Positions 15,107 to 32,854 of a stretch of DNA of 64,000 nt are shown here, in pieces. Within the stretch, counting starts at the first letter, position 1. The number at the start of each line of letters is the position of its first letter. This stretch comes from Candidatus Lindowbacteria bacterium RIFCSPLOWO2_12_FULL_62_27. Its GTDB lineage: Bacteria; Lindowbacteria; 2-12-FULL-62-27. A model generated the notes under the pieces. That model had not been told where the DNA came from. It did no database searches and saw only the letters and a program-made list of their open reading frames with translations. Location: NCBI GenBank assembly GCA_001784175.1, contig MFPR01000020.1:1-64000 (forward strand), given 5' to 3'. A program made the translations under genes and the position numbers.

Positions 15107-16214
15107 GCGCGAACTTGCGGAGAACGTCGGCCGGCAGATGAACGCCAAGTCCCGGCCGGGTCGGCACGCGGACAAATCCGCGCTCCATCTTCAAGGGCTC
15201 TTCCAAAAGCTCGTGATAAACGGCGTTTTCGGAACAGTCGAACTCGAGCCACGAGGTGTTCGGCGTGGCGGCCATGAGGTGGAGCGTGGCGGCGAGGAGG
15301 ATACCGGAAGAGAAATTGTGCGGCGACACGCGGACGCCATACTCTTCCGCGAGGCCGCAAATCTTTTTCGTTTCGAGAATCCCACCCGCGCGCCCGATGT
15401 CCGGCATGGCCACGTCCACGGCGCGCAAATCGAAAAGCTGTTTGAATCCGTGGACGCAGAATTCGTTTTCGCCGGCCGCAAGCGCCATGCGCGTCCCGCG
15501 CCGCACCTCGACCAGGGCCTCCGCGGGGTCGGGCCGCACGGGTTCTTCCAGCCAGTAAATATCGAACGGCTCCCAGAGCTGCGCGGCGCGAATGGCATCC
15601 TGAGCAGAGTAGCCAGCGTTGAGATCGATCATGAGTTTCACGCCGACCCCGACCGCCTCCCGGAGGCTCCGCACCCGTATCGTCTCCTCCTCTGGCGGCC
15701 GGCATCCGATGTGCGCCTTGACGGCGCCGAATCCCCTGCGAACGATCTGTTCCGCGCGATCCGCCATCCTCGCCGGGTCCTCTTCCCAGTAGACGTCACT
15801 CGCGTACGCCTCGATCCGGTCCCGGGCCGGGGCCGAATCTTCGGCGGCAAGAAGCCGATGAACCGGCGCGCCGAGGGCCTTGCCTTTGATGTCCCAGCAG
15901 GCCATCTCGATGGCGCTGAACGCGCAGATCGCCGATCCCTTTCGTTCAAAGTAAACGTACGGCTCCATCAGCCTCTGCCGGATTCCCTCGATGTCGGTGG
16001 GATCCAAACCGACCGCGCGGGCCGCAAGATCGGCCTCGAGAATCGCCCGAATCACCGCGGCCTGGCCAACGCCCTCTCCCAAGCCGATCAGTCCCTCATC
16101 CGTGTGAACCTGCACGATCGCGTGCCGCCGAACATCAAATCCCCCGCGGGAAATCCGCATGGAGGAGGTCAGCCGGTTCTCGAGCAGGAATGTCCGGACT
16201 TCCGTGATTTTCAC
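15093..16214 (-). CDS. mandelate racemase/muconate lactonizing enzyme family (enolase superfamily)
   Basis: SAIEMACWDIKGKALG, LMIDLN, WLEEP, AAGEN, PDIGRAGGI and SPH motifs. Confidence 0.9.
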   Translation of the reverse strand: MKITEVRTFLLENRLTSSMRISRGGFDVRRHAIVQVHTDEGLIGLGEGVGQAAVIRAILEADLAARAVGLDPTDIEGIRQRLMEPYVYFERKGSAICAFSAIEMACWDIKGKALGAPVHRLLAAEDSAPARDRIEAYASDVYWEEDPARMADRAEQIVRRGFGAVKAHIGCRPPEEETIRVRSLREAVGVGVKLMIDLNAGYSAQDAIRAAQLWEPFDIYWLEEPVRPDPAEALVEVRRGTRMALAAGENEFCVHGFKQLFDLRAVDVAMPDIGRAGGILETKKICGLAEEYGVRVSPHNFSSGILLAATLHLMAATPNTSWLEFDCSENAVYHELLEEPLKMERGFVRVPTRPGLGVHLPADVLRKFAHAAA

Positions 16215-16287
16215 GCCGGCAGTTTACCACGCCCGACGCCACTCCGGTACTCTTGATTCGCCCCGCTTGTTTTGGTCAAATGGTTTC

Positions 16288-18864: not shown

Positions 18865-18876
18865 AGGAGGCTGCGA

Positions 18877-20676
18877 ATGATCCGGGTGGCGGATTACATC
18901 ATCTCGTTTCTGGAGGGCGCCGGTGTCCGGGATTTTTTCACCGTGTCCGGCGGCGGATCCATCTTTCTGGACGACGCGCTGGCCGCCAATCCGAACATCC
19001 GCTACTACTGCTGTCACCACGAGCAGGCGGTGGCGATGGCCACCGAGGGCTACGCGCGGGCGCGCGGGGACCTCGGGGTCTCCGTCGTCACCACGGGACC
19101 CGGCAGCACCAACGCCATCACCGGCGTCGCCGGTTCGTGGATGGATTCGGTCCCGCACATGGTCCTGTCCGGCCAGGTGTTCTTGAACCAGACCATCCGG
19201 AAGACCGGCGCGCGGCAGATCGGGGTCCAGGAGATCAACATCATCGACATTGTCCGCCCGCTCACCAAACTCGCGGTCATGGTCGAATCGGCGGACAAGA
19301 TCAAATACTTTCTGCAAAAGGCCGTGTACGTCGCGAAAGCCGGCCGGCCCGGGCCCGTGTGGCTCGACATTCCGGCCGACGTCCAGAACGCGCGGGTCCA
19401 CCCGGACGATCTGGTGTCCTTCGACCCGTCGGAACTCAAGCCGGCCGAATTCGACGCTCATTTAAAAGAGAAGGTCCGCGAGGCCGTCAACTTCTTGCGC
19501 GCGGCGAAACGGCCCCTCGTGCATGTGGGCCAGGGCGTGAGGATCGCCGGCGCCGCACAGGAATTTCGCCGGCTGATCGAGACCCACCGGCTGCCCTTCG
19601 TGTCGGCGCGGAACGTCAACGACATGATCGAGACCGACCACGATTTGTATGTGGGCCGGCCCGGCACATTCGCCCAGCGGGGCGCAAACTTTGCCGTTCA
19701 AAATTGCGACGTGTATCTCGCCGTCGGCACGCGGCTGTCCCTCCCGCAGACAGGCTATCGTTCGAAGGACTACGCGCGTCACGCGCGGCGGATCATGGTG
19801 GACATCGACCGGGCGGAACTGGAAAAGGACACGCTCGACATCCATTTGAAAATCCACGCCGACGCCGGCCGATTCCTCAGAGAACTCATCGACCAGCTCC
19901 AATCCGTCCAACTGAACACCACCTCGTGGGTCGAACAGTGCCGGCACTGGAAAAAGAAGTATCCGGTCGTGTTGCCTGAATACAAGGACCAGAAAGGCTC
20001 GGTCAATTCCTATTACTTCACCGACGTCCTGTCGGACCTCCTGGGGCCCGGGGACCTGATCGTGACGGACATGGGCATCGCCTTTCAGGGAACGCACCAA
20101 GCCTTTCGCGTGAAGAAGGGCCAGAGACTCTTCACCAATTGCGGCTACGCCGCGATGGGCTGGGGCTTGCCGGCCGCGGTGGGCGCTTGCATCGGCATCG
20201 GCAAAAAGCGGACGATCTGCATCGCCGGCGAAGGCGGTCTGCAGATGAACCTGCAAGAACTTGCCACCGTCATGCACAATAAACTTCCCATCAAATTATT
20301 CGTCCTCAACAACGGCGGGTATCTCACCATCAAACAGACGCAGGAATACGGATTCGGCGGCCGGCTCATGGGCTGCAACCAGGACAGCGGACTGAGCTTC
20401 CCGGACATGAAGTCGATCAGCGCCGCCTACGGGTTCGACTTTCTGAGGGTGAGTGACCAGAAAAATCTGAAATCGGCGGTCGAAAAGGCGATTTCGGGTC
20501 CCGGCCCGTTTGTCTGCGAAATCATGATGGACCCCAACCAGGCGCAAATCCCGAAATTCCTGGCCCGGAAAAATCCCGACGGATCAACCCTTCCCACGCC
20601 GCTCGAAGATCTCTATCCCTACCTGGACGAGGCGGAATTCAAGGAGAACATGGTAGCGCAACGGCCCAACGAATAG
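18877..20676 (+). CDS. thiamine pyrophosphate-binding protein (acetolactate synthase large subunit-like)
   Basis: HHEQA, TTGPGSTN, GRPGPVWLDIP, MGWGLPAAVG and AGEGGLQMN...LNNGGY motifs. Confidence 0.92.
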   Translation: MIRVADYIISFLEGAGVRDFFTVSGGGSIFLDDALAANPNIRYYCCHHEQAVAMATEGYARARGDLGVSVVTTGPGSTNAITGVAGSWMDSVPHMVLSGQVFLNQTIRKTGARQIGVQEINIIDIVRPLTKLAVMVESADKIKYFLQKAVYVAKAGRPGPVWLDIPADVQNARVHPDDLVSFDPSELKPAEFDAHLKEKVREAVNFLRAAKRPLVHVGQGVRIAGAAQEFRRLIETHRLPFVSARNVNDMIETDHDLYVGRPGTFAQRGANFAVQNCDVYLAVGTRLSLPQTGYRSKDYARHARRIMVDIDRAELEKDTLDIHLKIHADAGRFLRELIDQLQSVQLNTTSWVEQCRHWKKKYPVVLPEYKDQKGSVNSYYFTDVLSDLLGPGDLIVTDMGIAFQGTHQAFRVKKGQRLFTNCGYAAMGWGLPAAVGACIGIGKKRTICIAGEGGLQMNLQELATVMHNKLPIKLFVLNNGGYLTIKQTQEYGFGGRLMGCNQDSGLSFPDMKSISAAYGFDFLRVSDQKNLKSAVEKAISGPGPFVCEIMMDPNQAQIPKFLARKNPDGSTLPTPLEDLYPYLDEAEFKENMVAQRPNE

Positions 20677-20700
20677 TAGATTGCTTCGTTTCGCCATAGA

Positions 20701-20773
20701 GTCCTCGTCGTCTAGGGGCCCAGGACACCGCCCTTTCACGGCGGTAACACGGGTTCAAATCCCGTCGAGGACG
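20701..20773 (+). tRNA. tRNA-Glu (TTC)
   Basis: Acceptor stem GTCCTCG/CGAGGAC, anticodon arm CCGCC-CTTTCAC-GGCGG, T arm GGTTCAAATCC; CCA not encoded. Confidence 0.95.
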
Positions 20774-21852
20774 CTGTTCTTCAGATCGATCCGCTGACGG
20801 ACCGCCGCGAGCAAATCCATCGGCGGCGGAAGACACGTCGTCACGAGGGCCTGGCCGGCGTACGGAGTCAGAAAGGCCGTCACCGCCGCGCGGCGTTCCT
20901 CGTCCAGCTCGGAAAACAAATCATCAAACAGCAGGATGGGAAGCGACACACGGGAGAGACGTGCGGCCTCGATGCACTTGAGGGCCAGCGAGAGAATTCG
21001 GATCTCACCCTGGGAAAGCGTTTCCTGCGCCGGCAGATTCACATCCATCATGAGCACGTCGTCGCGGTGCGGTCCCACCGTCGTGTGGCCCGCCGCCCGG
21101 TCCTGCGCCCGATGGGAGATCAGCGCGCCGAGCAAGTCCTCCGCGGCCGTCTCCTGGATGCGGAGCCGGGTCCGCCCGGCCAGATGGGCGGCGCCGAGAG
21201 AGGCAAGCCTATCGGGCAGCGCGGCTTGGACTTCCTCGATCAATTTCCTGCGCCCAGACATGATTTCACCGCCGTCGCCGGCAAGCGTTTCGTCATACGC
21301 CAGTAGGGCGTGTTCGTCGAGTACCGATGAACCCGCTGCGCGCAGGAACGCGTTTCGATCCTCGAGCGCGCGTGTGTAGCGCCGGAGCCTGGAAAGGTAC
21401 TCCGGATTTTCCTGGGCCAGAATCCTGTCCATCCATTTCCTCCGCCGGGCCGGCTCGCCTGTGACCATCCGCATTTCCTCGGCCGAAAACAGGACGACCG
21501 GCGGCCGGCCGATCAGATCGCTTCTTCGAACAGGCCGGCCGTCCTCGTGAAACACGAGGGCCGACCCTGCCAAAAACGCAACGGACCGGACTTTGGGTTC
21601 GCCGGCGGCTCGCTCGACCTCAACGCGGAAATAAGGCGATCCACCGGTTCGGCACAGGAGAGACAACACTCGAATATCCCGCGCCGGCCGGCCGAGACAC
21701 AGGAGATACACCGACTCCAGGAGTGTGGACTTGCCGGAACCGTTGGGCCCCGAAATCAGCGTGAGGCCGGACTCGGCCAGCGTTACTTCGGCCTTTGCGA
21801 ATCTCCTGAAATTTTCGAGCGTGAGGCGGACAAAACTGTTGGCGGGTGTCAA
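20755..21852 (-). CDS. recF: DNA replication/repair protein RecF
   Basis: LENFR, GPNGSGKST, GEPARRRKWMD, GPHRDD, SQGE and LLFDDLFSELD motifs; TTG start overlapping the dnaN stop is inferred. Confidence 0.92.
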   Translation of the reverse strand: MTPANSFVRLTLENFRRFAKAEVTLAESGLTLISGPNGSGKSTLLESVYLLCLGRPARDIRVLSLLCRTGGSPYFRVEVERAAGEPKVRSVAFLAGSALVFHEDGRPVRRSDLIGRPPVVLFSAEEMRMVTGEPARRRKWMDRILAQENPEYLSRLRRYTRALEDRNAFLRAAGSSVLDEHALLAYDETLAGDGGEIMSGRRKLIEEVQAALPDRLASLGAAHLAGRTRLRIQETAAEDLLGALISHRAQDRAAGHTTVGPHRDDVLMMDVNLPAQETLSQGEIRILSLALKCIEAARLSRVSLPILLFDDLFSELDEERRAAVTAFLTPYAGQALVTTCLPPPMDLLAAVRQRIDLKNSVLDGI

Positions 21853-22967
21853 GCGATGCGCATGGGCATGATGACGTGGAGATGCGAGTTGTCGTCCGGC
21901 GTGCGGAACACGCACGGATTTTTGGGCGTGATAACCCTGACCTGTACCTCCGGAGTCTCGATCTGGGAGATGGCATCCAGGCAGTAATTGACGTTGAAAG
22001 CCAGCTCCATGGGGCTGCCGGAGTATTTCAAGCCGAGGGTCGCGTCGCCGCTGCCGCGGTCCTGGGAGGCCGCGGATATTTTCAGGGAGTTCGGCTCCAG
22101 CTTGAAGAGCACCCGGGGATTCTGGACGTCGGTGAAAACCGACACCAGCCGGAGGGCTTGCGTCAGTTCCGTCACGTCGACCAGGAAATTGGTTTCGAAT
22201 TCCTTCGGGATCACCTGCGCATAATTCGGAAATTTTTCCGCAATGAGCTGGGTCTGCAGCGTCAACCCGTCCATGGAAAACAGGGCCACGCGCTCGGTGA
22301 ACGTCAGAGACACGGACGAGTCGTCGTCCGGGAGGCACCGGATCAGTTCCTGGCAGCTCCGGATCGGCACAAGAAACTCGCGCTTCTGGAATTTGCCGTC
22401 GACGCCGATCCGCACAAACGCCAGGCGGTGACTGTCGGTCGAAACCAGTTTGAGGTCCGCGCCCTCGAGATCAAAGAGAACCCCCGTCAAATACCGCCGG
22501 CTGTCCTCCACCGCCGCGGCCACCACGGTGCGTTTGAGACCTCCCAGAAGCTCTTTGGCGGACACGGAGAGCTTGACCTCGCCCTCGAGTTTCGCGGCTT
22601 TGGGGAAATCATCCTTCGACAGCACCGGAATACTGCCGGAAAATTTCTGTTTTCCCACCGCCGTCACATGGATCTGTCCCTTTTGAATGTCGCCGGACAG
22701 CACGAGCGACGCCTCGGGATCGGCGAGACGACTGACGAGATCGCCGAGCGTTTTGGCAGGAATGGCCACATCGGCCTTGTCGGCCACCGCGGAATTCAAA
22801 GCGACCGTGATGCGAAGATCCAGGTTGGTCCCGGTCAGGCGGCTCTTGCCGTCCCGGGCCTCCAAGAGAAGGTTCGTGAGAATCGGCAGAGGTGTCTGTT
22901 CGTCGACCGCACCACGAACTTTTTGCAGGGCATGCGCAAGGGACTCTTTGGTAAACTGGGCTTTCAT
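21849..22967 (-). CDS. dnaN: DNA polymerase III beta sliding clamp
   Basis: LPILTNLLL, STDSHRLA, FPNYAQVIP and VIMPMR motifs; located downstream of dnaA. Confidence 0.95.
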   Translation of the reverse strand: MKAQFTKESLAHALQKVRGAVDEQTPLPILTNLLLEARDGKSRLTGTNLDLRITVALNSAVADKADVAIPAKTLGDLVSRLADPEASLVLSGDIQKGQIHVTAVGKQKFSGSIPVLSKDDFPKAAKLEGEVKLSVSAKELLGGLKRTVVAAAVEDSRRYLTGVLFDLEGADLKLVSTDSHRLAFVRIGVDGKFQKREFLVPIRSCQELIRCLPDDDSSVSLTFTERVALFSMDGLTLQTQLIAEKFPNYAQVIPKEFETNFLVDVTELTQALRLVSVFTDVQNPRVLFKLEPNSLKISAASQDRGSGDATLGLKYSGSPMELAFNVNYCLDAISQIETPEVQVRVITPKNPCVFRTPDDNSHLHVIMPMRIA

Positions 22968-22978
22968 CGGTTATCTCC

Positions 22979-23053
22979 TTTTATATATATAATAATAGTG
23001 TTTTTAATAATTATAAACACTATTATTATTATGTCCCGTGGATATGTGGGAAA
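22979..23053. other. oriC unwinding region between dnaA and dnaN
   Basis: Almost pure A/T tract with TAT trinucleotide repeats next to two degenerate DnaA boxes (CGTGGATAT 23037-23045, TGTGGGAAA 23045-23053). Confidence 0.8.
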
Positions 23054-23177
23054 CCGTAAAACCTTCTGAACGCCAGCGCAAAGCCGAAATCAGTTCCTGT
23101 GGGCCGTTGCGCACAGAATCCTCAATTCACACGACGTGTGCAAAACGGGCCACCGTGCGTCGACACCCTCTGCACCA

Positions 23178-24524
23178 TCAGTGCACACCCAGTTCTTTCA
23201 TGAGATTGTCCAGCGTTCTCATCGTCTGCGGATTCTGGGCCGCTTCCGCTTCGATCTTCTCCACCGCGTGGATCACCGTGGTGTGGTCGCGGTCACCGAA
23301 GGCGTCTCCGATCGACTGGAGTGAGTAGTCGGTGAGCTTGCGGATCAGATACATGGCCATCATGCGGGGATAGGCGATGTTGTGCGTGCGGCGCTTGGAT
23401 TTCAGCTCGTCCACCGAGACCTTGAAATATCCCGAGATGCAGCCGGTGATGCCGTCCGGCGTGAGGATGTTTCTGCGCCGGACCACAATGTCCCGCAGCA
23501 TTTCGCGGGCGAGATCCAGCGTCATCTCCTGTTTCATGATCCTGCTGCGCGCGGCCACGCGCGTGAGAGACCCTTCGAGTTCCCGGATATTGGTGCGGAC
23601 ATTTTCCGCGATGAATTCGAGGACATCCTTTCGAACCGGCAGATTCTCCCGCTGGGCCTTGTCCATGAGAATGGCGACGCGCGTTTCATAATCGGGCGGC
23701 TGAATGTCGGCCGTGAGGCCCCACTCAAACCGGCTCCGTAGCCGCTCCTCGATGTCGAGAATGTCCTTCGGCGGCCGGTCGGAGGAGAGGACGATGTGTT
23801 TGCGCGCGCTGTGAAGTTCATTAAAGGTATGGAAAATTTCTTCCTGGATGGCGTCCTTGCCTGAGATGAAATGGACATCGTCCAGTAGAAGGATGTCCAT
23901 GTTCCGGTACTTGTATCGAAAGGCCGTGGTGCTCCTGCCGCGGACCGCCGCGACGTATTCGTTCGTGAATTGCTCCGACGTGATGTAGCACACCACGGCC
24001 TGGGGCGACCGGCGCTTGATGAAATGCCCGATGGCGTGCATCAGGTGCGTCTTGCCCAGACCCACGCCGCCATAGAGGAAAAGCGGATTGTAAATTTCGC
24101 CGGGCGATTCGGAAACCGCGAGGGCGGCGGCGTGCGCGAAATTGTTGCTCTTGCCGACGACAAACCGGTCGAAGGTGTATTTGTGATTGAGGTTGCTGCC
24201 GGTGAAACTGAACTCGAGGTTGGCCGGCGTTTCCTCCTGCGGTCCGGTTTCCTCCTCCGCCACAGGTCCTGCGGACATGGACCGGTTCACGCGGATGTCG
24301 ACTTTCACGGCGGCCCCGGCCAGTTCGCTCAGCGTATCGGAAATTTTCGGAATGAATTCCGCCAGCCGTTTCCGGTAGATCGCGCTGGGAACCTCCAGCA
24401 CGTAGTGGGAATCAGAATCGGATTTGAACTCTGTGTTCTTGACCCAGATGTCAAACAGATGCTCCGGGATGTGAGTGCGCAGTACGCCCAAAAGCTTATC
24501 CTGCTCAATTAGATGCGTCGGCAT
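23178..24524 (-). CDS. dnaA: chromosomal replication initiator DnaA
   Basis: [41 protein letters not shown] and [10 protein letters not shown] motifs. Confidence 0.98.
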
Positions 24525-24557
24525 TATTTCCCCTCTTTCCTTGCAGATAAACCCCGT

Positions 24558-24712
24558 TTATCCACACTTTCAACGATAATTTCCACAATCTATCCCAACC
24601 CTTTTTCCAGCGGTTATCCACAGTTTATACACCCAATGATGCACATATTCTACACACTGAAACATAAGCACTTATGATATTGGGTTCTTATACCAGCGCG
24701 AGGTTTTCCACG
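24558..24712. promoter_or_regulatory. DnaA-box cluster upstream of dnaA (second part of oriC and autoregulation site)
   Basis: Perfect TTATCCACA at 24558-24566 and 24614-24622; near matches ATTTCCACA 24579, TTATACACC 24625 and TTTTCCACG 24704, all in an AT-rich intergenic region. Confidence 0.85.
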
Positions 24713-24769
24713 CAAGTGTTTTTTTGAAATTCTCGGCATTTTCTCAACAACAAATTAGATTTCACTTGT

Positions 24770-25969
24770 TTATGTCGCGCCCAGCGCTTCCATCGGCTCC
24801 GTCAGAAGCGTGAGGACCGCCGTGTGATTCAGAATGGCCGAACGAACTTTTCGTCCGTCCCAGTGAATCGGGCCGATTTCGGCGAACCCGAAAAGGCCGG
24901 CGACGGGAAGTTCCGGGAAGAACTCGCGATAGGCGTCGAGATCGACATGAGGCCGGCCGTAAAGGGACAGTCCGCGCGCGCAGCAGTTGAAGATCACCGT
25001 CGCTCGTGGCGCCCGGCCGCTGAGGCCGCCGCTCAATCGTTCCAGCATCTGCCGGAACGTGCGCCTCGACCCTCTGGCGCTCCGGACGCCGAAACAGATG
25101 AATTGTCCTGCGCGGACCGGTTCCGCGACGGAGACATGCTGGGTGGCCAGCTCGACAGCGAGAATGCTTCGCACGATATATCGGCCTGCGATGTAATCCT
25201 TGAGGGAATCCGCGAGCGCGCAGAAGATGTCGATGCGGTCCTGCTGTGGGTGGGCTTTCCGCTGTTCCTGGACGAACGCCGCGAGGACGTCGGCGGCCGG
25301 TTCGTGGTCGATCTGCGCGATCCGGTTGTCCGATGCGCTCGTGATCGGCCGCGGCTCGGATTCTGGAAGGACGGCGTGGGCGACCCCGATGGAAGCCTCG
25401 ACGCAGCCGGCGAGGTGCAGTGCGGCGCAACCGTGGTGGGAGGATTCGCCGTCGGCCGCGATCGTGGCCACCTGGCTTTCGGCGGACCACCCGGCGGCGG
25501 CGCCGACGACGGGTGTTTCGGGAAAGGCGTGGGCCATGCGGGAAAGAAACCCGGGATGCAGGCTTCGCGGGTCCGCCGTCAGGAACAGGACGCCGCGTTC
25601 CCGATAGAGACTCGGCAGTTCCCCCCGCAGGTGCTGGACGGCGTCGGACCGCAGATCGGGCGCCATGGCGGCCCCCGCGGTGACGCGGTCGGAGGACATC
25701 AGGAGGATCGACAGGCCCGGCTCGCTTTCGACCTCGCCCCGCGGACCGATGATGCCGGCGCCGGTCGCGCCGAAGAGCGCCCGGATATGAATCTTGCTTC
25801 GAAGAAAATCCAGGATTTCCTGAAAGGATTTCGAATGATGGCTTGTGCCGAAGACCCACGCGGCGGTCGCCGCCGGTTCAGGCAAGGGCTGGACCGCCTC
25901 GCCGAGGGCCTCGGCCGCCGCCGCCTTCGAATCCGGGTTCAAACTCATGCCTGCGCCGGTGTGGATCAT
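24770..25969 (-). CDS. FIST domain (N and C) signal-transduction protein
   Basis: LFGATGAGII, ITSASDNRIAQID, YIVRSIL, FNCCARG, GLFGFAEIGP and NHTAV motifs. Confidence 0.88.
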   Translation of the reverse strand: MIHTGAGMSLNPDSKAAAAEALGEAVQPLPEPAATAAWVFGTSHHSKSFQEILDFLRSKIHIRALFGATGAGIIGPRGEVESEPGLSILLMSSDRVTAGAAMAPDLRSDAVQHLRGELPSLYRERGVLFLTADPRSLHPGFLSRMAHAFPETPVVGAAAGWSAESQVATIAADGESSHHGCAALHLAGCVEASIGVAHAVLPESEPRPITSASDNRIAQIDHEPAADVLAAFVQEQRKAHPQQDRIDIFCALADSLKDYIAGRYIVRSILAVELATQHVSVAEPVRAGQFICFGVRSARGSRRTFRQMLERLSGGLSGRAPRATVIFNCCARGLSLYGRPHVDLDAYREFFPELPVAGLFGFAEIGPIHWDGRKVRSAILNHTAVLTLLTEPMEALGAT

Positions 25970-26023
25970 GCGAGGATTATAGCAGAAATAAAGACGGCGC
26001 CGGCGGTAGATGAGGCGTTGCTG

Positions 26024-27598
26024 TCACTTTGGGACATTTCCCTTGAGCGCCATCAAAATGGATGTGCGCAGGCGCCCGAATTCGTCGTCCGACATGACCG
26101 GCGCCGCGCCGTCAAGGGAGATTTCCTCCTGCATATGGATCCAGTTGCGCCCTCTCATCTTCGGCACGTGAATGAGGGCGGGCAGGCGATAGACGCGCAG
26201 GACGGAGGCATACATCGGATTGCGGTACTTGCGGGACTCGCTTAACGCAAAGTCCACCGTGTAGGGCATGAAGGGTCCGATTCGGACGATTTCTTCCGGA
26301 CCCACTTCGACGTTTTCAACGGAGAGCGCCACATATCGAATCGGCACCCGATCGCCGGTCCACGCCGGAACGCGCGGCGCCACCTCCGGCTTGAGCGCAT
26401 CGTCGGCCAAACCGTCCCGGTGCGGCACCAGCAGGAACGCCTTCCCGGTCTTGATGCCGCCGGCGACGGCACGCAGACTGAGCGCGGTTCGGCCCCCGCC
26501 GAACGACTCGACCATGCGGTGATCGAAGAGATGGCCGACGGAGGTTTTGTCGGGAAGAGTTTCGTCTTTCACCGTGCCATCCGGCGACGGTGCGGACGCA
26601 TCGTCGGATTCGACCTCGGTCCCGGTTCCACGCCCTACGAACCAGGCTCCGCCTGCGGCGAGGGCGAACAGAATCCCGGCGGCGATGAGGACGGCCTTAT
26701 TGGATTTGACGCCGGCCGGCGCGTTGGACGAAACATCCGAGCGAAGGATGTCCACCGGCGCGCCGGCCGCGCCCGACAAGTCCTCGATCACGTGAACGGC
26801 CGACCGGTATCGCTTGCACAAATCCCGCTGGAGACATTTTTGCAGGATGCTGTCAGACAGCGCCGAGAGTTTCGCGTTCAGGTTTCGCGCGGGCGGCGGC
26901 GCGTACGATGGATTCAGAATCCGGGCGATCACCACGGTCGCGGACTCGCCGTCGAAGGGCCGCCGGCCCGTCGCGATCTGGTAGCCGATCACGCCCAGGG
27001 ACCAGAGGTCCGCCGGCTCGCGCACGTCTTTCGACGACTGGATCTGTTCCGGCGCCGAATAGTGCGGCGTGCCGAGAACTTCGCCCGTCACCGTGAAGTG
27101 CGATTCGCTGACCATGGCCGAAAGACCGAAATCCGTGATCCGGATGCCGCCGTTTGGCATCACCACCACGTTGCCCTCCGTCAGATCCCTGTGCAGAATC
27201 CCCTGCTGATGAGCCGCCAGGAGCGCCCGGCAGATTTCGCCGAACATCGCGCGCCAGGTTTCGTCGTCCGGAAGTTCCGTGCGTTCGGCGAGCCAGGCCC
27301 GAAGGTTCTTGCCCTCCAGCCATTCCATCGCAAGATAATAGCGTCCGGCGTCGATGCCGAATTCGTAAACCTTGGGAATCGCTTCGTGCGACAGCGTCAT
27401 GCCGATCCGCGCCTCGCGCTTGAACCGCTCCACAAACGCCTCCTGCTTGCCGAAGGCCGCCGGCAGAAGTTTCACCGCCACCGGCTTGCCGTCCTCCGGG
27501 TCCTCCGCCCGGTACACCGAGCCCATCCCCCCCGCCGCCACCAGCGAGACGATCCGGTACCGGCCGATCCGGTCCGGGGTTGATGGGTGGGCCGTCAT
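26024..27598 (-). CDS. membrane Ser/Thr protein kinase with a C-terminal DUF1802-like domain
   Basis: AGGMGSVY, VAVK, HRDLTEGN, DFG and GTPHYSAPE; TM helix AVLIAAGILFALAAGGAWFV; C-terminal FLLVP...LRVYRLP...PVMSDDEF. Confidence 0.9.
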   Translation of the reverse strand: MTAHPSTPDRIGRYRIVSLVAAGGMGSVYRAEDPEDGKPVAVKLLPAAFGKQEAFVERFKREARIGMTLSHEAIPKVYEFGIDAGRYYLAMEWLEGKNLRAWLAERTELPDDETWRAMFGEICRALLAAHQQGILHRDLTEGNVVVMPNGGIRITDFGLSAMVSESHFTVTGEVLGTPHYSAPEQIQSSKDVREPADLWSLGVIGYQIATGRRPFDGESATVVIARILNPSYAPPPARNLNAKLSALSDSILQKCLQRDLCKRYRSAVHVIEDLSGAAGAPVDILRSDVSSNAPAGVKSNKAVLIAAGILFALAAGGAWFVGRGTGTEVESDDASAPSPDGTVKDETLPDKTSVGHLFDHRMVESFGGGRTALSLRAVAGGIKTGKAFLLVPHRDGLADDALKPEVAPRVPAWTGDRVPIRYVALSVENVEVGPEEIVRIGPFMPYTVDFALSESRKYRNPMYASVLRVYRLPALIHVPKMRGRNWIHMQEEISLDGAAPVMSDDEFGRLRTSILMALKGNVPK

Positions 27599-28350
27599 TT
27601 CAGCAGATGAAATGCGTTTTTGTAGGGCGTAAGATCGAGATCCCATTCTCCGCTCCGCAGGATTGGGCGATTCCCGGCCGACACGATGTTGACAGAGCGG
27701 GTGGCTCTCCCCCCCAGAGATGTAAACGTCTCAATGCGATCCGGCGAGAGAATATCTCCCGGAATCACGAAAATGTCCCGAGACTCTTCATCATCGACGA
27801 CCACAAAATAGGGTCCCAAGTCCGCAATCGCGCGGGCGACGATCGGACTTAAACTGATACGATGGCGGATCCCCAATGACCGAATCGTCGTGCGATACAG
27901 GTAACAGTTTCTGTCACGGACCTTATATGTCCTCGCCGATCCGGGTATTCCAGAGAGAATCCGGTCCATCTTGACATTGAACTTCGCCCCAAAGAGCAGA
28001 TCATCCTCCGACATTTCTCTCATCTTATATGCCGGGGTTTCCTGCCCGGCGTCGGAGACGCCGGCACTTGGGGCCGCGGAGCGGCTGACCCGTCCGGCGG
28101 CGATTCCGGATGCGAGGGGAATGACGAGAAGAACCCAGACGGCCGCGGGCAACCGGCGCCGCGCCACCGACATGCGCGCCAGGGCCGGGCGCCATTCCAC
28201 ATTTTTTAAATCTCCCGTGCGCCACGCGCCGCAAGACGGACAGGCTCGCCCGGATTCGGCCGCCATGTGTCCGCAGGCGGGGCAGGCAACGGCCACCCCG
28301 CTCTCGTCCGTCCGTGGACTTTGCGGGATTCCCTCCGTCCGTCCGGTCAT
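27595..28350 (-). CDS. zinc-ribbon/TM protein sharing its C-terminal domain with the upstream kinase
   Basis: CPACG...CPSCG, TM helix, and C-terminus SGEWDLDLTPYKNAFHLLK; ATGA coupling at both ends. Confidence 0.8.
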   Translation of the reverse strand: MTGRTEGIPQSPRTDESGVAVACPACGHMAAESGRACPSCGAWRTGDLKNVEWRPALARMSVARRRLPAAVWVLLVIPLASGIAAGRVSRSAAPSAGVSDAGQETPAYKMREMSEDDLLFGAKFNVKMDRILSGIPGSARTYKVRDRNCYLYRTTIRSLGIRHRISLSPIVARAIADLGPYFVVVDDEESRDIFVIPGDILSPDRIETFTSLGGRATRSVNIVSAGNRPILRSGEWDLDLTPYKNAFHLLK

Positions 28351-28412
28351 TTCAGGAGATGGAACGCATTTTTGTAGGGCGTAAGGTCGAGTTCCCATTC
28401 GCCGCTTTGCAA
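27595..28412 (-). repeat. imperfect ~65-bp direct repeat pair at 27595-27660 and 28347-28412 (paralogous C-termini)
   Basis: tcatttcagcagatgaaatgcgtttttgtagggcgtaagatcgagatcccattc versus tcatttcaggagatggaacgcatttttgtagggcgtaaggtcgagttcccattc. Confidence 0.85.
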
Positions 28413-30032
28413 GAGCGCACTCTTTCCACCAGAACGGACTGTCGCATACCTGGTAGAACTTGTAGTATTCGCCCGGACAAATTTTTCCATTGTTTCCGTC
28501 GACAAAATGTTCCCGGGGATCACAAAAACTTCATCGAGGTCATCCGTTTCGACAACCAGGAACCAAGGACCCAACTTGTCCATGAGCCGTGGGAGGGCTG
28601 GATTTAAATAGACCTTCATTCGCCTCACACGTTCTGCAGATGCGGCATACAGGTAATATTTGCCGCCCTGGACCTCATATGTTCTCGCGTGCGTACCTGT
28701 TCTTCCTCCCACGCGAATTCTCTCGATCTTGAGATTCAGCTTCGCCGCCCACGGCAACGCGTCGTCCGCCGCCTGCTTTGTTGATATGGCCGGCGCGTCC
28801 ACTTCATCCCGTTGGTCATCCTCATCTGCAAGCTGGGACTCCGGCGCGTATGCCCTTTGCCCGCCCCCCGTGACGGAGACCCACCCGATGGGCGCGCCGG
28901 CGGCGAAGGCGGCGAGGGAGGCGATGAGCGCGATGGCGACCCGGCGAAGGCTCACGAAACCGCCGCCGGGGTCCGGCGCGGGGCGGGAGGACGAAAGAGC
29001 GTAGGTGCGGCCGCCGATCTCGGCTTCGATCACTCCCCGGCGGCCGATCTTGCCGGACCGTACGACCTGGCCGACCGCCCCTCGCGGAGGCGGGTGTCCG
29101 CCCGCCGCATGATGATGGCAGGCGATCTGCGCGTGATAAAAGACTTCGCCCGGAATGTAGGCGCGGTCTGACCGGTAGGCGAACGCCTGCGGAATCGGGT
29201 CGTCAGAGTCCAGGTCTCGCAAGAGATCCGCACATGATCCGTATCGGCCGGCCGGCTCGCGGCAGAGGCACCGCATGACGATCAGATCCAGTTTCTGGGA
29301 TACGCCGTCTTTGACCTCCGACGGAAATTTGATGTGGTAGCTGGGATTGAGCAGCGTCGCGGTAATGGATGCGATGTTCCGTGCCTCATAGGGCGTCCGG
29401 CCGGCCAGGATTTCGTAGGCGATGACGCCGATCGACCAGAGGTCCGACCGGGCGTCGATGGCGGCGCGGGACTCGAACTGCTCGGGGGCCATGTAGGCGG
29501 GCGTGCCGAAGTGTTGGCCGGTCATGGTGAGGGTCGCCTCGTCGACGAGTTTGGAGATGCCGAAATCGACGAGCTTGATGCCGGTTGCGCCGTTGACGAT
29601 GACGTTTTTCGGTGAAATATCCCGGTGGATGATTCCAACGCCGTGCGCGTACGACAGAATTCCCGCAAGATCCCGGATAACCCTCACCGCCAGGTCAGGC
29701 CCGCCGGAGGGAGGGTGAGCCAGGACCCATTCGAGTGACCGGCCCTCGAGAAATTCCATGACGACGTATCGGCGGCCGTCCACCTCTCCGTCGTCGATGT
29801 GCCGGGGGATGCCGGGATGATTCAGTTTTCGCAGCGACGCGCATTCCCGCTTGAACCGCTCCCGGAACCTCTCGTTCTTCGACAGATGCTGCGGCAGAAC
29901 TTTGAGCGCCACGGGCGGGCCGCCCTGCGGGGATTCGGCCAGATATACGTTGCCCATGCCCCCGTGGCCGACCTCCCGGATGATCCTGAAAGGCCCGAAA
30001 AATTCGACGCTTGGCGCGGGAGGCGGCGTCAT
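28347..30032 (-). CDS. membrane Ser/Thr protein kinase with an uncharacterised, possibly PD-(D/E)XK-like, C-terminal domain
   Basis: GHGGMGNVY, VALK, HRDISPKN, DFG and GTPAYMAPE; TM helix VAIALIASLAAFAAGAPIGWV. Confidence 0.9.
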   Translation of the reverse strand: MTPPPAPSVEFFGPFRIIREVGHGGMGNVYLAESPQGGPPVALKVLPQHLSKNERFRERFKRECASLRKLNHPGIPRHIDDGEVDGRRYVVMEFLEGRSLEWVLAHPPSGGPDLAVRVIRDLAGILSYAHGVGIIHRDISPKNVIVNGATGIKLVDFGISKLVDEATLTMTGQHFGTPAYMAPEQFESRAAIDARSDLWSIGVIAYEILAGRTPYEARNIASITATLLNPSYHIKFPSEVKDGVSQKLDLIVMRCLCREPAGRYGSCADLLRDLDSDDPIPQAFAYRSDRAYIPGEVFYHAQIACHHHAAGGHPPPRGAVGQVVRSGKIGRRGVIEAEIGGRTYALSSSRPAPDPGGGFVSLRRVAIALIASLAAFAAGAPIGWVSVTGGGQRAYAPESQLADEDDQRDEVDAPAISTKQAADDALPWAAKLNLKIERIRVGGRTGTHARTYEVQGGKYYLYAASAERVRRMKVYLNPALPRLMDKLGPWFLVVETDDLDEVFVIPGNILSTETMEKFVRANTTSSTRYATVRSGGKSALLQSGEWELDLTPYKNAFHLLK

Positions 30033-32854
30033 CGGACGGTCAGGAAATCCTTCAGGATCTTCATGCGCATTTCGACGCCGGCGCCGGCATCCAGAAACGG
30101 GCGAAGTTCGTCGACCGATCGAAATTTGCGGGACTTGCGTGCCTTCAGAATACCGGATATCTCTCCGCGTCCGATATAGGGAATTCCCTTGAACCGGGCC
30201 TCCGGCAGAGTGTGGACGTCCTGCGGCTCGCCCCACAGGCTCAGGAATTCCAAGTCAACCGTCACGGTCCGATCGCCCGGTTTGACGTAGAGCGCCTTCC
30301 GATATCGGGCAAGGCGTTCCCCCGCCGGTTCTGATTTGGGATTGTACTGCAATGGCTCAATCACCCCGCGAATAAACTCCTCCACATCCCCAAACGCCCC
30401 CCGGCGGTGGCGGTGCATCATGATCAGGAGCGGATCCCGCCACGTTCGGAGCAGGCCTGTCAAATCCGAGAGTGAGGCATGATTCAGATCCAGCCGTTCC
30501 GCAACCGACGTGACGACGATGAAATCTTTCAACAGATTCAGCCGGATTTTGGGATCCCAGGATGCGTCCAGCAGCGGCAGAAGGTCTTGAAATGATCGGA
30601 ACGCCCGCCTCTCACGGACGCGCCAGACAGCCGTTTTTTCGTGCCCTTTCAAAAGAGGCAGGTTGTGGATCTGATCAAAGGACGCGGTGTTCAGATTGAC
30701 GGGTTCATTCCACATCCGCAGAAACTCCGGATCAACGGTCACCGTCGCGTCTCCCGGGGCAACCATAAGGATGTCCCGGTATCGTTTGACCTGTTCTTGA
30801 ACCGTTTCCCTATGGGGCTTGTAGCCGACCGGCAAAAGAATGCCGTTGATATATTCATCGACGCTCCGGAACGCTCCGTGACGGTGGCGGTGCATCATGA
30901 TGAGCATCGCGTCCCGGTCGCGGCCTTTGCCGAAGGCGCCAATCAGCTCTTCGAGCGAGGCGTGATTCAAGTCGACCCGGGCGCGCCTGGAAAGTCGGGA
31001 GGAAGCCAGTTGTTCGGCATAAAATTTGTCGACGGCCTGCTTGTAGGTGCGGTCGAGCGTTTCGTTGCCGAGAGTTATAAAATCCAGCCACACCACTTCC
31101 TTGCGCCTCTCATATCCCGCCGAGGGTCCGCTTGCGGCTTTCAGCACGTCGTCCAGGCTGCGAAGCGTTCCTCCATGGGCGCGGTACTGCACGATATCTC
31201 CGGCAGTGCTTGATCCAATAAAGGGCACGGTCGCGAGTTCTTCCGACGATGCGCGGTTGATGTCGATCCGCCGGTATCGTTTGAGAAATTCGTCGTCGGC
31301 CGGCGCGGCCGCATGGGACTCAACTTTCAACTGGTGACGGTAGTTCTGGATGGCATAGTATCTCATCCCGGCGAGGATCGCCCCCGCGTCATCCATATTC
31401 TTGAAAGCCCCATGATTGTGACGGTAGGCCAGCAGAGACATGGCGCAGTTGTCGCTCAGGCCTTTGATCCTGACCAGGTCTGAAAATTTCGCCGTGTTGA
31501 GGTCGACGACGAGGTCGGCGTCTTTTATGTGTTGAGTTGTCGGGGTCGACGATTTTTGAATCGCCCCGATGCGGGAAGGCGCCGGCGTGACATGAGGTGA
31601 CCGGCTCCAGAAGATCGCCCCCGCGATCAACGCGACGGGGAGGGCCGACCATGCGACGGCTTTGAGCAGGCGCCGCCGTCGCGCGTGCCGGCCGGACTGC
31701 GATCGGGAGCGCGTCACGCGGCAGAGGGATTCGGCTCCGGCCGCGATCAGGCCGCATGCCGGACAGGCCTGGCCGCCGGCCAGTCCGTGCCCGCATTCGG
31801 CGCATGGGGTGTTGTTGTCCGTTTCGGTCTCCGCTGGCGCCGCGGTCAGGCGGCGGCTGTGGCTGGCGCCGTGGTGGATCAGTCCCACGAACCTCCGCCT
31901 TCCCAGCTTTCCCGCCTCATCCACGACCGCCCAACGACGGGCATGGGGCAGGTAAACCAGGTCGTCCAGTTGATAGATCCGCCGAGGATCGTACGTTTCA
32001 TCCGGCGCCGGCCGGCTGAGGGCCTCGATGACGGCGGTTGCGGAGGGGAATCGGTATCGGGGATTTTTTTGGAGCAAACGATCGACGACGGCCGCCAAGG
32101 CCGGGGGAATGTCCGGATTCAGGTCGAGTACGGCGGGCGGCGACAGGTTGGGATTCCCTAATTTCTGAATGACGACGATATTATCCCCTTCGAATGGGGT
32201 CCGGCCGGTCAGCGCATGAAAGGCCACCGCGCCCATCGACCAGAGGTCCGACAGCTCCGGATGGACGCCGGCGGTCCCAAACTGTTCCGGGGCCATGAAG
32301 GAGGGCGTGCCGAAGTGCTGGCCGGTCATGGTGAGCGTGGCTTCGTCGACGAGTTTGGAGATGCCGAAATCGACGAGCCTGATTTGGGATGCGTCGTCCA
32401 CAATGACGTTCCTCGGGGAAATGTCGCGGTGGATGACGCCCATGCCGTGCGCATAAGAAAGAATCCCCGCAAGCTCCCGGATGAGTCGCGCGGCCAGGTC
32501 AGGCCCGCCGGAGGGGTGCGCCAGAACCCATTCGAGGGACCGGCCCTCGAAAAATTCCATGACGACGTATCTGCGGCCGTCCACCTCTCCGTCGTCGATG
32601 TGCCGTGGGATTCCGGGATGGTTCAGCTTCCGAAGCGACGCGCACTCCCGGTTAAAGCGCTCCCGGAATTGATCGTTCTTCGACAGATGCTGCGGCATGA
32701 CCTTGACCGCCACGGGCGCCCCGCCCATCGGGGATTCAGCCAGATAGACATTCCCCATGCCCCCGTGACCGATCTCCCGGATGATCCTGAAATCTCCGAA
32801 AAATTCGGCGCCTTCCAGCATGGAAGGCCAGTGAAACAGATCAGCCGGGGGCAT
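30029..32854 (-). CDS. membrane Ser/Thr protein kinase with a zinc ribbon and six ComEA-like helix-hairpin-helix units
   Basis: Intact kinase motifs, CAECG...CPACG, TM helix, then DLNTA/DINRAS/DLNHAS/NLNTAS/DLNHAS-type HhH units; alternative start at 32821. Confidence 0.9.
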   Translation of the reverse strand: MPPADLFHWPSMLEGAEFFGDFRIIREIGHGGMGNVYLAESPMGGAPVAVKVMPQHLSKNDQFRERFNRECASLRKLNHPGIPRHIDDGEVDGRRYVVMEFFEGRSLEWVLAHPSGGPDLAARLIRELAGILSYAHGMGVIHRDISPRNVIVDDASQIRLVDFGISKLVDEATLTMTGQHFGTPSFMAPEQFGTAGVHPELSDLWSMGAVAFHALTGRTPFEGDNIVVIQKLGNPNLSPPAVLDLNPDIPPALAAVVDRLLQKNPRYRFPSATAVIEALSRPAPDETYDPRRIYQLDDLVYLPHARRWAVVDEAGKLGRRRFVGLIHHGASHSRRLTAAPAETETDNNTPCAECGHGLAGGQACPACGLIAAGAESLCRVTRSRSQSGRHARRRRLLKAVAWSALPVALIAGAIFWSRSPHVTPAPSRIGAIQKSSTPTTQHIKDADLVVDLNTAKFSDLVRIKGLSDNCAMSLLAYRHNHGAFKNMDDAGAILAGMRYYAIQNYRHQLKVESHAAAPADDEFLKRYRRIDINRASSEELATVPFIGSSTAGDIVQYRAHGGTLRSLDDVLKAASGPSAGYERRKEVVWLDFITLGNETLDRTYKQAVDKFYAEQLASSRLSRRARVDLNHASLEELIGAFGKGRDRDAMLIMMHRHRHGAFRSVDEYINGILLPVGYKPHRETVQEQVKRYRDILMVAPGDATVTVDPEFLRMWNEPVNLNTASFDQIHNLPLLKGHEKTAVWRVRERRAFRSFQDLLPLLDASWDPKIRLNLLKDFIVVTSVAERLDLNHASLSDLTGLLRTWRDPLLIMMHRHRRGAFGDVEEFIRGVIEPLQYNPKSEPAGERLARYRKALYVKPGDRTVTVDLEFLSLWGEPQDVHTLPEARFKGIPYIGRGEISGILKARKSRKFRSVDELRPFLDAGAGVEMRMKILKDFLTVR

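Follow-up and report, generated by a model that had tools for sequence, protein, structure and literature searches.

Why would a bacterial protein kinase carry, on the far side of a membrane helix, a tandem array resembling the DNA receptor ComEA? This question is raised by a gene within the first 64,000 nucleotides of contig MFPR01000020.1 (hereafter the window) from Candidatus Lindowbacteria bacterium RIFCSPLOWO2_12_FULL_62_27 (assembly GCA_001784175.1; genome G000), where a single 941-codon open reading frame (ORF) at positions 30029-32854 of the reverse strand encodes a protein of 941 amino acids (aa), P0001. An earlier model-generated prediction, which had only the DNA letters and their translations to work from, described a kinase fused to six extracytoplasmic helix-hairpin-helix (HhH) units of the ComEA type and proposed that multivalent DNA binding clusters and trans-activates the kinase. 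Our analysis indicates that P0001 is very probably a single-pass receptor Ser/Thr kinase. Its kinase domain, juxta-kinase region, and zinc ribbon are predicted to be cytoplasmic, one helix would cross the inner membrane, and about 520 residues would lie in the periplasm. The best overall explanation that we can offer, at somewhat under an even chance, is a receptor whose ComEA-derived periplasmic array binds a long, repetitive ligand, for which nucleic acid is the first choice.

Kinase, membrane helix, and helix-hairpin-helix array

The Pfam family Pkinase (PF00069) matches residues 23-270 of P0001 with 139.2 bits (cut-off 31.7), and the motifs GHGGMG, VAVK, HRDISPRN, DFG, and APE, together with a TLTMTG activation loop, are legible in the translation. 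P0001 belongs to a group of proteins that we call the ABCD family, four members of which were aligned (alignment A1). The catalytic motifs are invariant in all four, save for P0005, whose N-terminus is absent, and the TLTMTG loop is likewise invariant in the four aligned members. No Pfam family matched the juxta-kinase region (residues 285-345), and the zinc-ribbon region that follows it yielded only DZR at E 0.58. In a Kyte-Doolittle profile with 19-residue windows, the best window scores 1.88 (residues 396-414) and the next separate one 1.10 (at residue 363), and a hydrophobic stretch occupies the same alignment place in all four members. As had been described from the sequence, RRRRLLK (residues 392-398) leads into the transmembrane (TM) segment (residues 396-417). 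We used the positive-inside rule to orient this helix. Because there is one TM helix with RRRR on its N-terminal side, and because the kinase needs cytoplasmic ATP, the roughly 520 C-terminal residues are predicted to lie outside the inner membrane. The genome encodes a secretin and its owner should thus have an outer membrane, so that "extracytoplasmic" means periplasmic for P0001. The predicted order of kinase, one TM helix, and external HhH array is borne out by the Pfam domains and the hydropathy profile, with the topology itself being deduced as described.

The six unit starts named in the original prediction were located at residues 450, 530, 627, 719, 788, and 878 (units U1 to U6). When the whole protein is scanned, the Pfam family HHH_3 (PF12836) matches in four stretches with E 4.7e-32 and 110.3 bits against a cut-off of 27. 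When the units are scanned singly, U1 (42.0 bits) and U2 (45.0 bits) lie above this cut-off, U3 (17.4 bits) and U4 (17.8 bits) lie under it, U5 is faint (11.7 bits), and U6 gives no HHH_3 match. The HHH_3 scan that had been suggested as a check is thus positive for the protein as a whole and for two of its six units taken alone. Note that the matched stretches span only profile positions 4-48 of 65, and that the second helix-hairpin-helix is divergent in every unit. The NCBIfam model TIGR00426 (ComEA helix-hairpin-helix repeat region) also matches, with 64.7 bits against a cut-off of 53.1; its best stretch, residues 529-587, falls in unit 2, the most ComEA-like of the six. TIGR01259, the model of full-length comEA, stays short of its cut-off of 152.35, at 99.5 bits. 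T2SSK, another Pfam family, reaches 26.4 bits (cut-off 24.2), with none of its stretches passing singly and no pseudopilin domain seen. Among proteins of solved structure, the closest in sequence are EEPD1, through its HhH region (E 7.9e-10), and Geobacillus ComEA (8dss, E 0.003).

Internal repeats were revealed by BLAST of one segment against another, the whole-ectodomain self-comparison having returned only the identity match. Residues 626-781 align with residues 787-940 over 156 columns at 45% identity (E 4e-47), which upholds the earlier claim that the units are arranged in pairs and that the last two pairs are a duplication. At the level of single units, U5 is 54% identical to U3 (E 1.5e-33) and U6 is 34% identical to U4 (E 3.8e-17), and U3 matches U1 with E 1.2e-9. 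BLAST also links the first pair to the second (E 1.9e-11) and the third (E 2.5e-7). On the basis of these relations we describe the ectodomain as three two-unit cassettes, AB, CD, and C'D'.

AlphaFold2 (AF2) was applied to residues 440-941 (502 residues) with an eight-row family alignment. The resulting model has a mean pLDDT of 80.9 and a pTM of 0.46, so that the single units are modeled confidently and their mutual packing is not reliable. Comparison of the unit folds with structural representatives by VIA-align recovered the (HhH)2 fold for U1, U2, U4, and U6, and only weak rows for U3 and U5 (Table 1). A Foldseek search with the entire 502-residue model found nothing at E <= 0.001, its top row being ComEA 8dss_B (E 0.21, prob 0.99). 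The homology to the ComEA DNA-binding domain that had been proposed is nevertheless well founded, given the TIGR00426 score and the Z value of 8.9 between U4 and ComEA 8dss_B. We assign U5 to the array because of its identity to U3, and U6 because of its identity to U4 and its fold. The observation of six ComEA-like units is therefore confirmed with a qualification, namely that only U1 and U2 pass HHH_3 singly and that U5 and U6 are recognized through duplication or fold.

Related kinases and their genomic setting

A word-indexed search with the ectodomain over 5.8 billion proteins (8000 scored candidates) gave four proteins at E <= 0.001, every one with Pkinase and HHH_3. When 1.84 billion representatives were searched exhaustively with HMMER, 1366 reached E <= 0.001; of these, 84 had E <= 1e-10 and 6 had E <= 1e-30. 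Pfam was run on 48 of the 150 representatives listed, including all but one of those with at least 500 aa, and found a kinase in only three (P0003, P0005, and P0006). In the other 45, complete HHH_3 units form arrays with no kinase, in some cases joined by SLBB, metallo-beta-lactamase, GmrSD_C, PLD, or a giant secretin. Pkinase was present in 1 of 51 matches of another search, and Pkinase plus HHH_3 in 2 of the best 120 of a third. Among the matches listed, those of the word-indexed searches included, the kinase-HHH_3 fusion thus appears to be limited to this lineage and one further protein, P0206. No description of a Ser/Thr kinase with a ComEA/HHH_3 ectodomain was found among the titles and abstract openings listed by literature searches.

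The species collection holds four genomes for the phylum, all of one family. The ABCD family is present in G000 and G002, whereas no member turned up in G001 and G003, which are 88% and 81% complete, respectively. A scan of the GTDB species genomes placed it only on one contig of a single metagenome-assembled genome. Cassette order varies among the members: AB-CD in P0004, P0005, and a 774-aa ORF, AB-AB-CD in P0003, AB-CD-CD in P0001, and AB-AB-TPR in P0006. Across the ABCD ectodomains of four members, whose mutual identity is 39-45%, 73 columns are invariant, and the positions concerned include D-x-N-x-A, GAF, WLDF..LG, and TVT.DP..L..W.

In G000, Pkinase was matched 20 times and HHH_3 34 times, and eight open frames contain both. 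Six of these eight HhH kinases are encoded at 62.5-91 kb of contig C33 (L018, L019), where some ten Ser/Thr kinase genes form a cluster. Two ABCD kinases on C33 directly precede kinase-free proteins composed of a zinc ribbon, a TM helix, and two HHH_3 units. Three kinase-free zinc-ribbon and TM proteins are held in the cluster, two of them with an HHH_3 pair, and by eye the cluster is flanked by ORFs resembling adenylate/guanylate cyclases. Inspection by eye also suggested a BRCT-like tail on a 613-aa kinase and Ada-like zinc motifs in a 369-aa protein of C33; neither is supported by Pfam at E <= 0.01, which reports on these two proteins only DUF1802 and, under its cut-off, DUF6233.

One of the eight, P0153 (421 aa, C33), consists of a kinase, a TM helix, and a single canonical ComEA-type unit with the hairpins PGVG and PGIGEKK. 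Proteins named ComEA by their sources share 48-63% identity with this unit. The P0153 gene adjoins an ORF for a putative PP2C-type phosphatase (read by eye). P0153 is matched over its full length in G002 (79% identity) and G003 (45%), and P0158 and P0206 (407 aa, 43% identity) are full-length relatives. A structural-atlas search for look-alikes of P0153 returned plain kinase clusters only, with PF12836 on none of the rows shown. Three further kinases of 610, 619, and 522 aa have two units each, with the hairpins partly preserved.

A maximum-likelihood tree was built from the first 300 residues of 18 kinases, comprising 13 of the 20 genome kinases plus P0003, P0005, P0006, P0158, and P0206. P0003 may be identical to the kinase of contig C6 of this genome, in which case the tree would hold 14 genome kinases and four relatives. 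HhH ectodomains occur on three separate supported kinase clades (100/100, 100/99, and 90/97), and the P0153 kinase falls in a different clade (100/100) from that of P0001. Within these clades, HhH ectodomains are interchanged with ectodomains of two other kinds, DUF1802 and a domain that we call domain X. The P0001 kinase is sister (96/95) to a pair made up of the domain X kinase encoded directly downstream of it and a short C33 kinase. Judged by these comparisons, P0001 arose in a lineage-specific radiation during which ComEA-type, PD-(D/E)XK-like, and DUF1802 ectodomains have been swapped among related kinases.

The P0001 gene heads a four-gene operon with an ATGA stop/start overlap at each of its three junctions (30029-30032, 28347-28350, and 27595-27598). 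Given these overlaps, the ORF list probably overextends the N-termini of genes 2 to 4. Gene 2 encodes the domain X kinase, gene 3 a kinase-free domain X protein, and gene 4 a kinase with a DUF1802 ectodomain. Groundwater and soil metagenomes of four studies contain the operon in seven DNA runs, of which four may be its source, and no RNA run is among the runs listed as containing it. DUF1802 was observed as the ectodomain of two sister kinases, gene 4 (39.2 bits) and L018:9994-11832 (-) (43.7 bits; cut-off 25), and the literature mention of DUF1802 that was found is unrelated to these kinases.

Domain X comprises about 150 residues with an invariant TPYKNAFHLL at its end and belongs to no Pfam family. 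Four copies were found, three in G000 and one in G002. Its AF2 model (pLDDT 74.9, pTM 0.76) best matches I-Ssp6803I (Z 7.3), Hjc (6.9), RecU (6.5), MepB (6.3), and PvuII (5.0), and the 16 best structural rows are all PD-(D/E)XK-fold nucleases (Z 7.3-3.8), middling values that assign a fold and not a function. Its structural-atlas neighbors are the PDDEXK_5, MTaX1, DUF4365, and RecU clusters. The ExK motif was not seen in the four-row alignment of domain X, and searches by sequence or profile gave no solved relative for either DUF1802 or domain X.

The same genome is well supplied with DNA-uptake genes. Four ComEC-type ORFs are present, and ComEA-like proteins of 244 and 161 aa are encoded next to one ComEC gene (983 aa) on contig C26 (L029/L030). 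The secretin mentioned above is a 2201-aa protein on C26 (L029:2732-9334, -) with Secretin_N, Secretin, and three C-terminal HHH_3 units. Similar giant secretin-HHH_3 proteins of 2700-3200 aa were observed elsewhere (P0100, P0123, and P0142).

Candidate ligands and alternative readings

If P0001 works as we tentatively propose, its array would bind a long, repetitive periplasmic ligand, as six similar modules would suit, the first choice being nucleic acid imported by the enlarged DNA-uptake apparatus. Several receptors gathered on one ligand molecule could then trans-phosphorylate their TLTMTG activation loops, and the signal might be shared with the three co-translated operon partners. Both the ligand and the activation mechanism are what we infer from homology and gene context. 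We rank nucleic acid first because of the descent from ComEA, the canonical unit on a paralogous kinase, the interchangeable ectodomains of nuclease fold, the basic character of the array, and the enlarged DNA-uptake set. On these grounds DNA or another nucleic acid is the leading single class of ligand, a candidate that we hold short of probable. Multivalent DNA binding, as put forward in the original prediction, is possible and is favored by the nuclease-fold ectodomains of the operon and the expanded DNA-uptake gene set.

A close parallel for such a mechanism is found in the PASTA kinases (PknB/Stk1), which like P0001 have a Hanks-type kinase, one TM helix, and tandem extracytoplasmic sensor modules. 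In the textbook model, PASTA kinases are activated by ligand-promoted dimerization, which brings two kinase domains together. P0001 differs from them in having no PASTA domain by Pfam, in the fold of its sensor, and in its presumed ligand; the model NF033483 matches the kinase part only, with 216.9 bits (cut-off 450).

Several features of the units weigh against DNA as the ligand. The ComEA protein of V. cholerae is indeed a periplasmic dsDNA receptor, as originally stated, and its DNA binding is abolished by G60V/E in the GIG hairpin or by replacement of K62/K63, according to the published report (PMC3879209). We therefore set out the six units of P0001 in alignment with the single canonical unit of P0153. 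The P-G-[IV]-G hairpin is absent from all six at either aligned position, and G-[IVLM]-G is found at 0 of 12 aligned hairpin positions, compared with 2 of 2 in P0153. Hairpin 1 reads KGLS, PFIG, FGKG, PLLK, LRTW, and PYIG in U1 to U6, with a two-residue deletion in U5. In unit B, a conserved Phe (PF[IV]S) replaces the first hairpin glycine. Stray G-x-G strings do occur (GKG in U3, and GAG in U6 out of register by two residues), but they are not conserved in the matching units of other members, and hairpin glycines are unconserved family-wide. Lys-Lys is missing from +2/+3 after hairpin 1 in every unit, these positions being mapped via the unit alignment and not directly to V. cholerae ComEA; P0153 has Lys-Lys after hairpin 2. 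The HhH motif family PF00633 scores 16.7 bits on P0001 (cut-off 24), whereas kinase-free multi-HHH_3 proteins that match it range from about 28 to 218 bits. The P0001 ectodomain is basic overall (pI 9.49, net +12), yet U1 and U3 have a net charge of 0 and the AB-AB part of the relative P0006 is acidic (pI 6.0). To these points is added the unreliable packing of the units in the AF2 model.

Like ComEA (V. cholerae; G. stearothermophilus 8dss; T. thermophilus 2duy), the P0001 array belongs to the HHH_3/TIGR00426 family, shares the fold (Z 8.9 and 5.2), and would occupy the compartment outside the inner membrane. Unlike ComEA, it is fused behind a kinase and TM helix, has six units instead of one, has neither SLBB nor an oligomerization domain, stays under the TIGR01259 cut-off, and lacks the canonical G-h-G hairpins and the Lys pair that, by the V. 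cholerae account just cited, ComEA requires. P0153 has the same order of kinase, TM helix, and HHH_3 ectodomain and is encoded in the same genome, but it has a single unit with both hairpins canonical, a kinase of another clade, and no zinc ribbon. Outside the kinase family, the AB cassette is closest in sequence to kinase-free tandem HHH_3 proteins (arrays of 3-8 units), whose units, in contrast to those of P0001, match the HHH_3 profile over its whole length (3-65 of 65) and give high scores with the HhH motif model. The sensor belongs to the HHH_3/TIGR00426 family by profile and fold, but we do not file it as a DNA-binding ComEA domain, because it lacks the motif features tied to DNA binding. 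The original prediction therefore stands for architecture, ComEA homology, pairing, and duplication, and is weakened in its functional part by the missing hairpin glycines and Lys pair and by several units with no net charge.

The loss of the hairpin glycines and of the Lys pair makes it nearly as likely that the array is a re-purposed scaffold, an alternative that we consider a substantial possibility, if a somewhat doubtful one. The ComEA fold would have been kept and DNA binding lost, with the array instead binding a protein partner or envelope polymer or governing how the kinase oligomerizes. The partner might be one of the small zinc-ribbon, TM, and HhH proteins, an HhH module of ComEA or the secretin, or an ectodomain of the operon partners. 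The glycines are lost family-wide while D-x-N-x-A, GAF, WLDF..LG, and TVT.DP..L..W are invariant, a pattern that fits selection on the scaffold and inter-unit joints and not on phosphate contacts. The minor pseudopilin GspK/XcpX and PsbU of photosystem II use an HhH-type fold and are not known to bind DNA with it. They have this fold outside the cytoplasm, as is predicted for P0001, and their fold matches (Z 6.0-6.2 for GspK/XcpX and 6.5 for PsbU) also count against a DNA ligand; the T2SSK match at 26.4 bits would fit a scaffold. P0001, however, has no pseudopilin body or photosystem context and is closer in sequence to ComEA and EEPD1. Further support for a scaffold comes from the kinase-free zinc-ribbon, TM, and two-HHH_3 proteins encoded directly 3' of two C33 ABCD kinases, from the periplasmic TPR repeats of P0006, a protein-binding module, and from the presence of eight diverged HhH kinases in one genome, which speaks against one generic ligand for all. 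Loss of DNA binding is less easily reconciled with the net charge of +12 on the whole ectodomain, the nuclease-type fold of the neighboring ectodomains, and the canonical ComEA-type unit on the paralogous kinase P0153.

A broader version of the nucleic acid reading holds that the eight HhH kinases, together with the kinases and anchors bearing PD-(D/E)XK-like and DUF1802 ectodomains, constitute a periplasmic nucleic-acid surveillance system. We regard this as rather unlikely. Such kinases would sense the amount, length, strandedness, or modification of DNA that is arriving or present in the environment and could couple DNA uptake through the four ComEC paralogs and the secretin-HhH giant to cell physiology.

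It is improbable that the array is only a spacer or a decaying duplicate, with ligand-free units adrift and signaling that is either constitutive or left to the juxta-kinase region and zinc ribbon. HHH_3 no longer recognizes U5 and U6, hairpin 1 of U5 carries its two-residue deletion, and cassette number varies freely among members, as drift would allow. Nevertheless, this explanation is disfavored by the 73 invariant columns among four ABCD ectodomains that are only 39-45% identical. Moreover, all 941 codons are open with no internal stop, CD and C'D' have stayed 45% identical, with long blocks conserved, and the AF2 model is well folded. Least credible of all is an anti-phage or anti-plasmid defense module, in which the kinases would detect foreign periplasmic DNA and trigger a response: the partners' ectodomains do have a nuclease fold and the PADLOC models PD-T4-6, mad6, PglW, and Stk2 match the kinase domains with E down to 5.6e-73, but these matches are confined to the kinase (residues ~11-300, one reaching 423) and are expected of any Hanks kinase, gene 3 matches no PADLOC family, and the neighbors are housekeeping genes (dnaA, mreB, mreC, and PBP2) with no effector gene seen in the operon.

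We thus read P0001 as a receptor kinase with a new type of sensor, which by its predicted topology faces the periplasm. To our knowledge, only a handful of sensor types have been recognized on bacterial receptor Ser/Thr kinases (PASTA, beta-propeller, TPR, and a few others), and most of their ligands are unknown. Here, a DNA-receptor fold has been placed on the sensing side of kinases repeatedly and in several forms, in one organism with an unusually large DNA-uptake set, a groundwater bacterium of a barely sampled phylum. If any such ectodomain binds nucleic acid, phosphorylation-based measuring of periplasmic or environmental DNA becomes directly testable. Should the proposed surveillance prove true, it would be the first bacterial receptor-kinase pathway with a DNA ligand outside the cytoplasm. 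If none of them binds DNA, the family would still be a clear case of the ComEA fold recruited as a signaling scaffold. In either event, the canonical one-unit P0153 and the degenerate six-unit array form a natural series for the re-purposing of a DNA-binding module.

Feature coordinates and neighboring genes

Table 1. Features of the P0001 gene, its operon, and domain X. Coordinates refer to the window unless a contig or genome is named; structural matches are VIA-align rows for single units of the AF2 model (Z; rmsd over aligned residues).
Feature	Coordinates	Strand	Evidence	Structural matches
Whole gene, 941-aa receptor Ser/Thr kinase P0001	30029..32854	-	Stop codon 30029-30031; ORF list, translation, Pfam	
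Hanks-type kinase domain, residues 23-270	32045..32788	-	Pkinase 139.2 bits and motifs in translation	
Conserved juxta-kinase region, residues 285-345 (VYLPHARRWAVVDE...)	31820..32002	-	Invariant columns Y294-R335 in alignment A1	
Zinc-ribbon-like CxxC...CxxC (C351, C354, C364, C367), predicted cytoplasmic	31751..31804	-	All four Cys invariant in A1	
Single TM helix, residues 396-417, RRRRLLK before helix	31604..31669	-	Hydropathy maximum 1.88	
Unit 1 (A), residues 448-525, HHH_3-derived	31280..31513	-	HHH_3 42.0 bits alone; Tex fold match	Model 4-75: Tex HhH domain 3bzc_A (8.2; 1.9 over 70); PsbU (6.5; 3.4 over 75)
Unit 2 (B), residues 526-620, then long helix and conserved WLDFITLG linker	30995..31279	-	HHH_3 45.0 bits alone; TIGR00426; ComEA 8dss	Pol III alpha HhH (5.5; 3.5 over 81)
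Unit 3 (C), residues 625-715, divergent HhH, LIMMHRHRHGAF and TVTVDPEFL blocks	30710..30982	-	HHH_3 17.4 bits; related to U1	1wg8_B, weak row (4.8; 2.3 over 65)
Unit 4 (D), residues 716-785	30500..30709	-	HHH_3 17.8 bits; ComEA 8dss_B fold match	Model 278-343: ComEA 8dss_B (8.9; 1.9 over 62; 29% identity); XcpX (6.2; 2.2 over 65); GspK (6.0; 2.1 over 63)
Unit 5 (C'), residues 786-875, unit 3 duplicate	30230..30499	-	54% identity to U3; HHH_3 11.7 bits	3o7h_A, weak row (3.6; 2.8 over 67)
Unit 6 (D'), residues 876-941, unit 4 duplicate	30032..30229	-	34% identity to U4; 2duy_A fold match	Model 431-501: T. thermophilus ComEA-related 2duy_A (5.2; 1.7 over 62)
Operon gene 2, 561 aa, kinase, TM, and domain X ectodomain	28347..30032	-	Pfam; ATGA overlap with gene 1	
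Operon gene 3, zinc ribbon, TM, and domain X, kinase-free	27595..28350	-	ATGA overlap with gene 2; AF2	
Operon gene 4, kinase, TM, and DUF1802 ectodomain	26024..27598	-	Pkinase 147.4 bits; DUF1802 39.2 bits (cut-off 25); ATGA overlap	
Domain X of gene 3	in 27595-28350	-		
Domain X of gene 2	28347-28802	-		
Domain X on C33	L023:1501-1950			
Domain X in G002	L021:1501-1947			

The operon sits between dnaA (23181-24524, -) and mreB-mreC-PBP2. A RecF/SMC-like gene (20758-22338, -) lies near dnaA and the kinase operon, and the cumulative GC skew has its minimum at about 28-30 kb and is positive after 32 kb. The region from about 20700 to 32000 of the window is probably that of the replication origin. 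Two adjoining genes for thiamine-pyrophosphate enzymes were observed at 16159-20673 (+); the product of the first is extended at its N-terminus by some 300 residues, in which Pfam matched nothing at E <= 1e-8. A 2212-aa ORF at 49014-55652 (+) with PKD-like, beta-helix, fn3, and Ig-like domains probably encodes a large surface or secreted protein.

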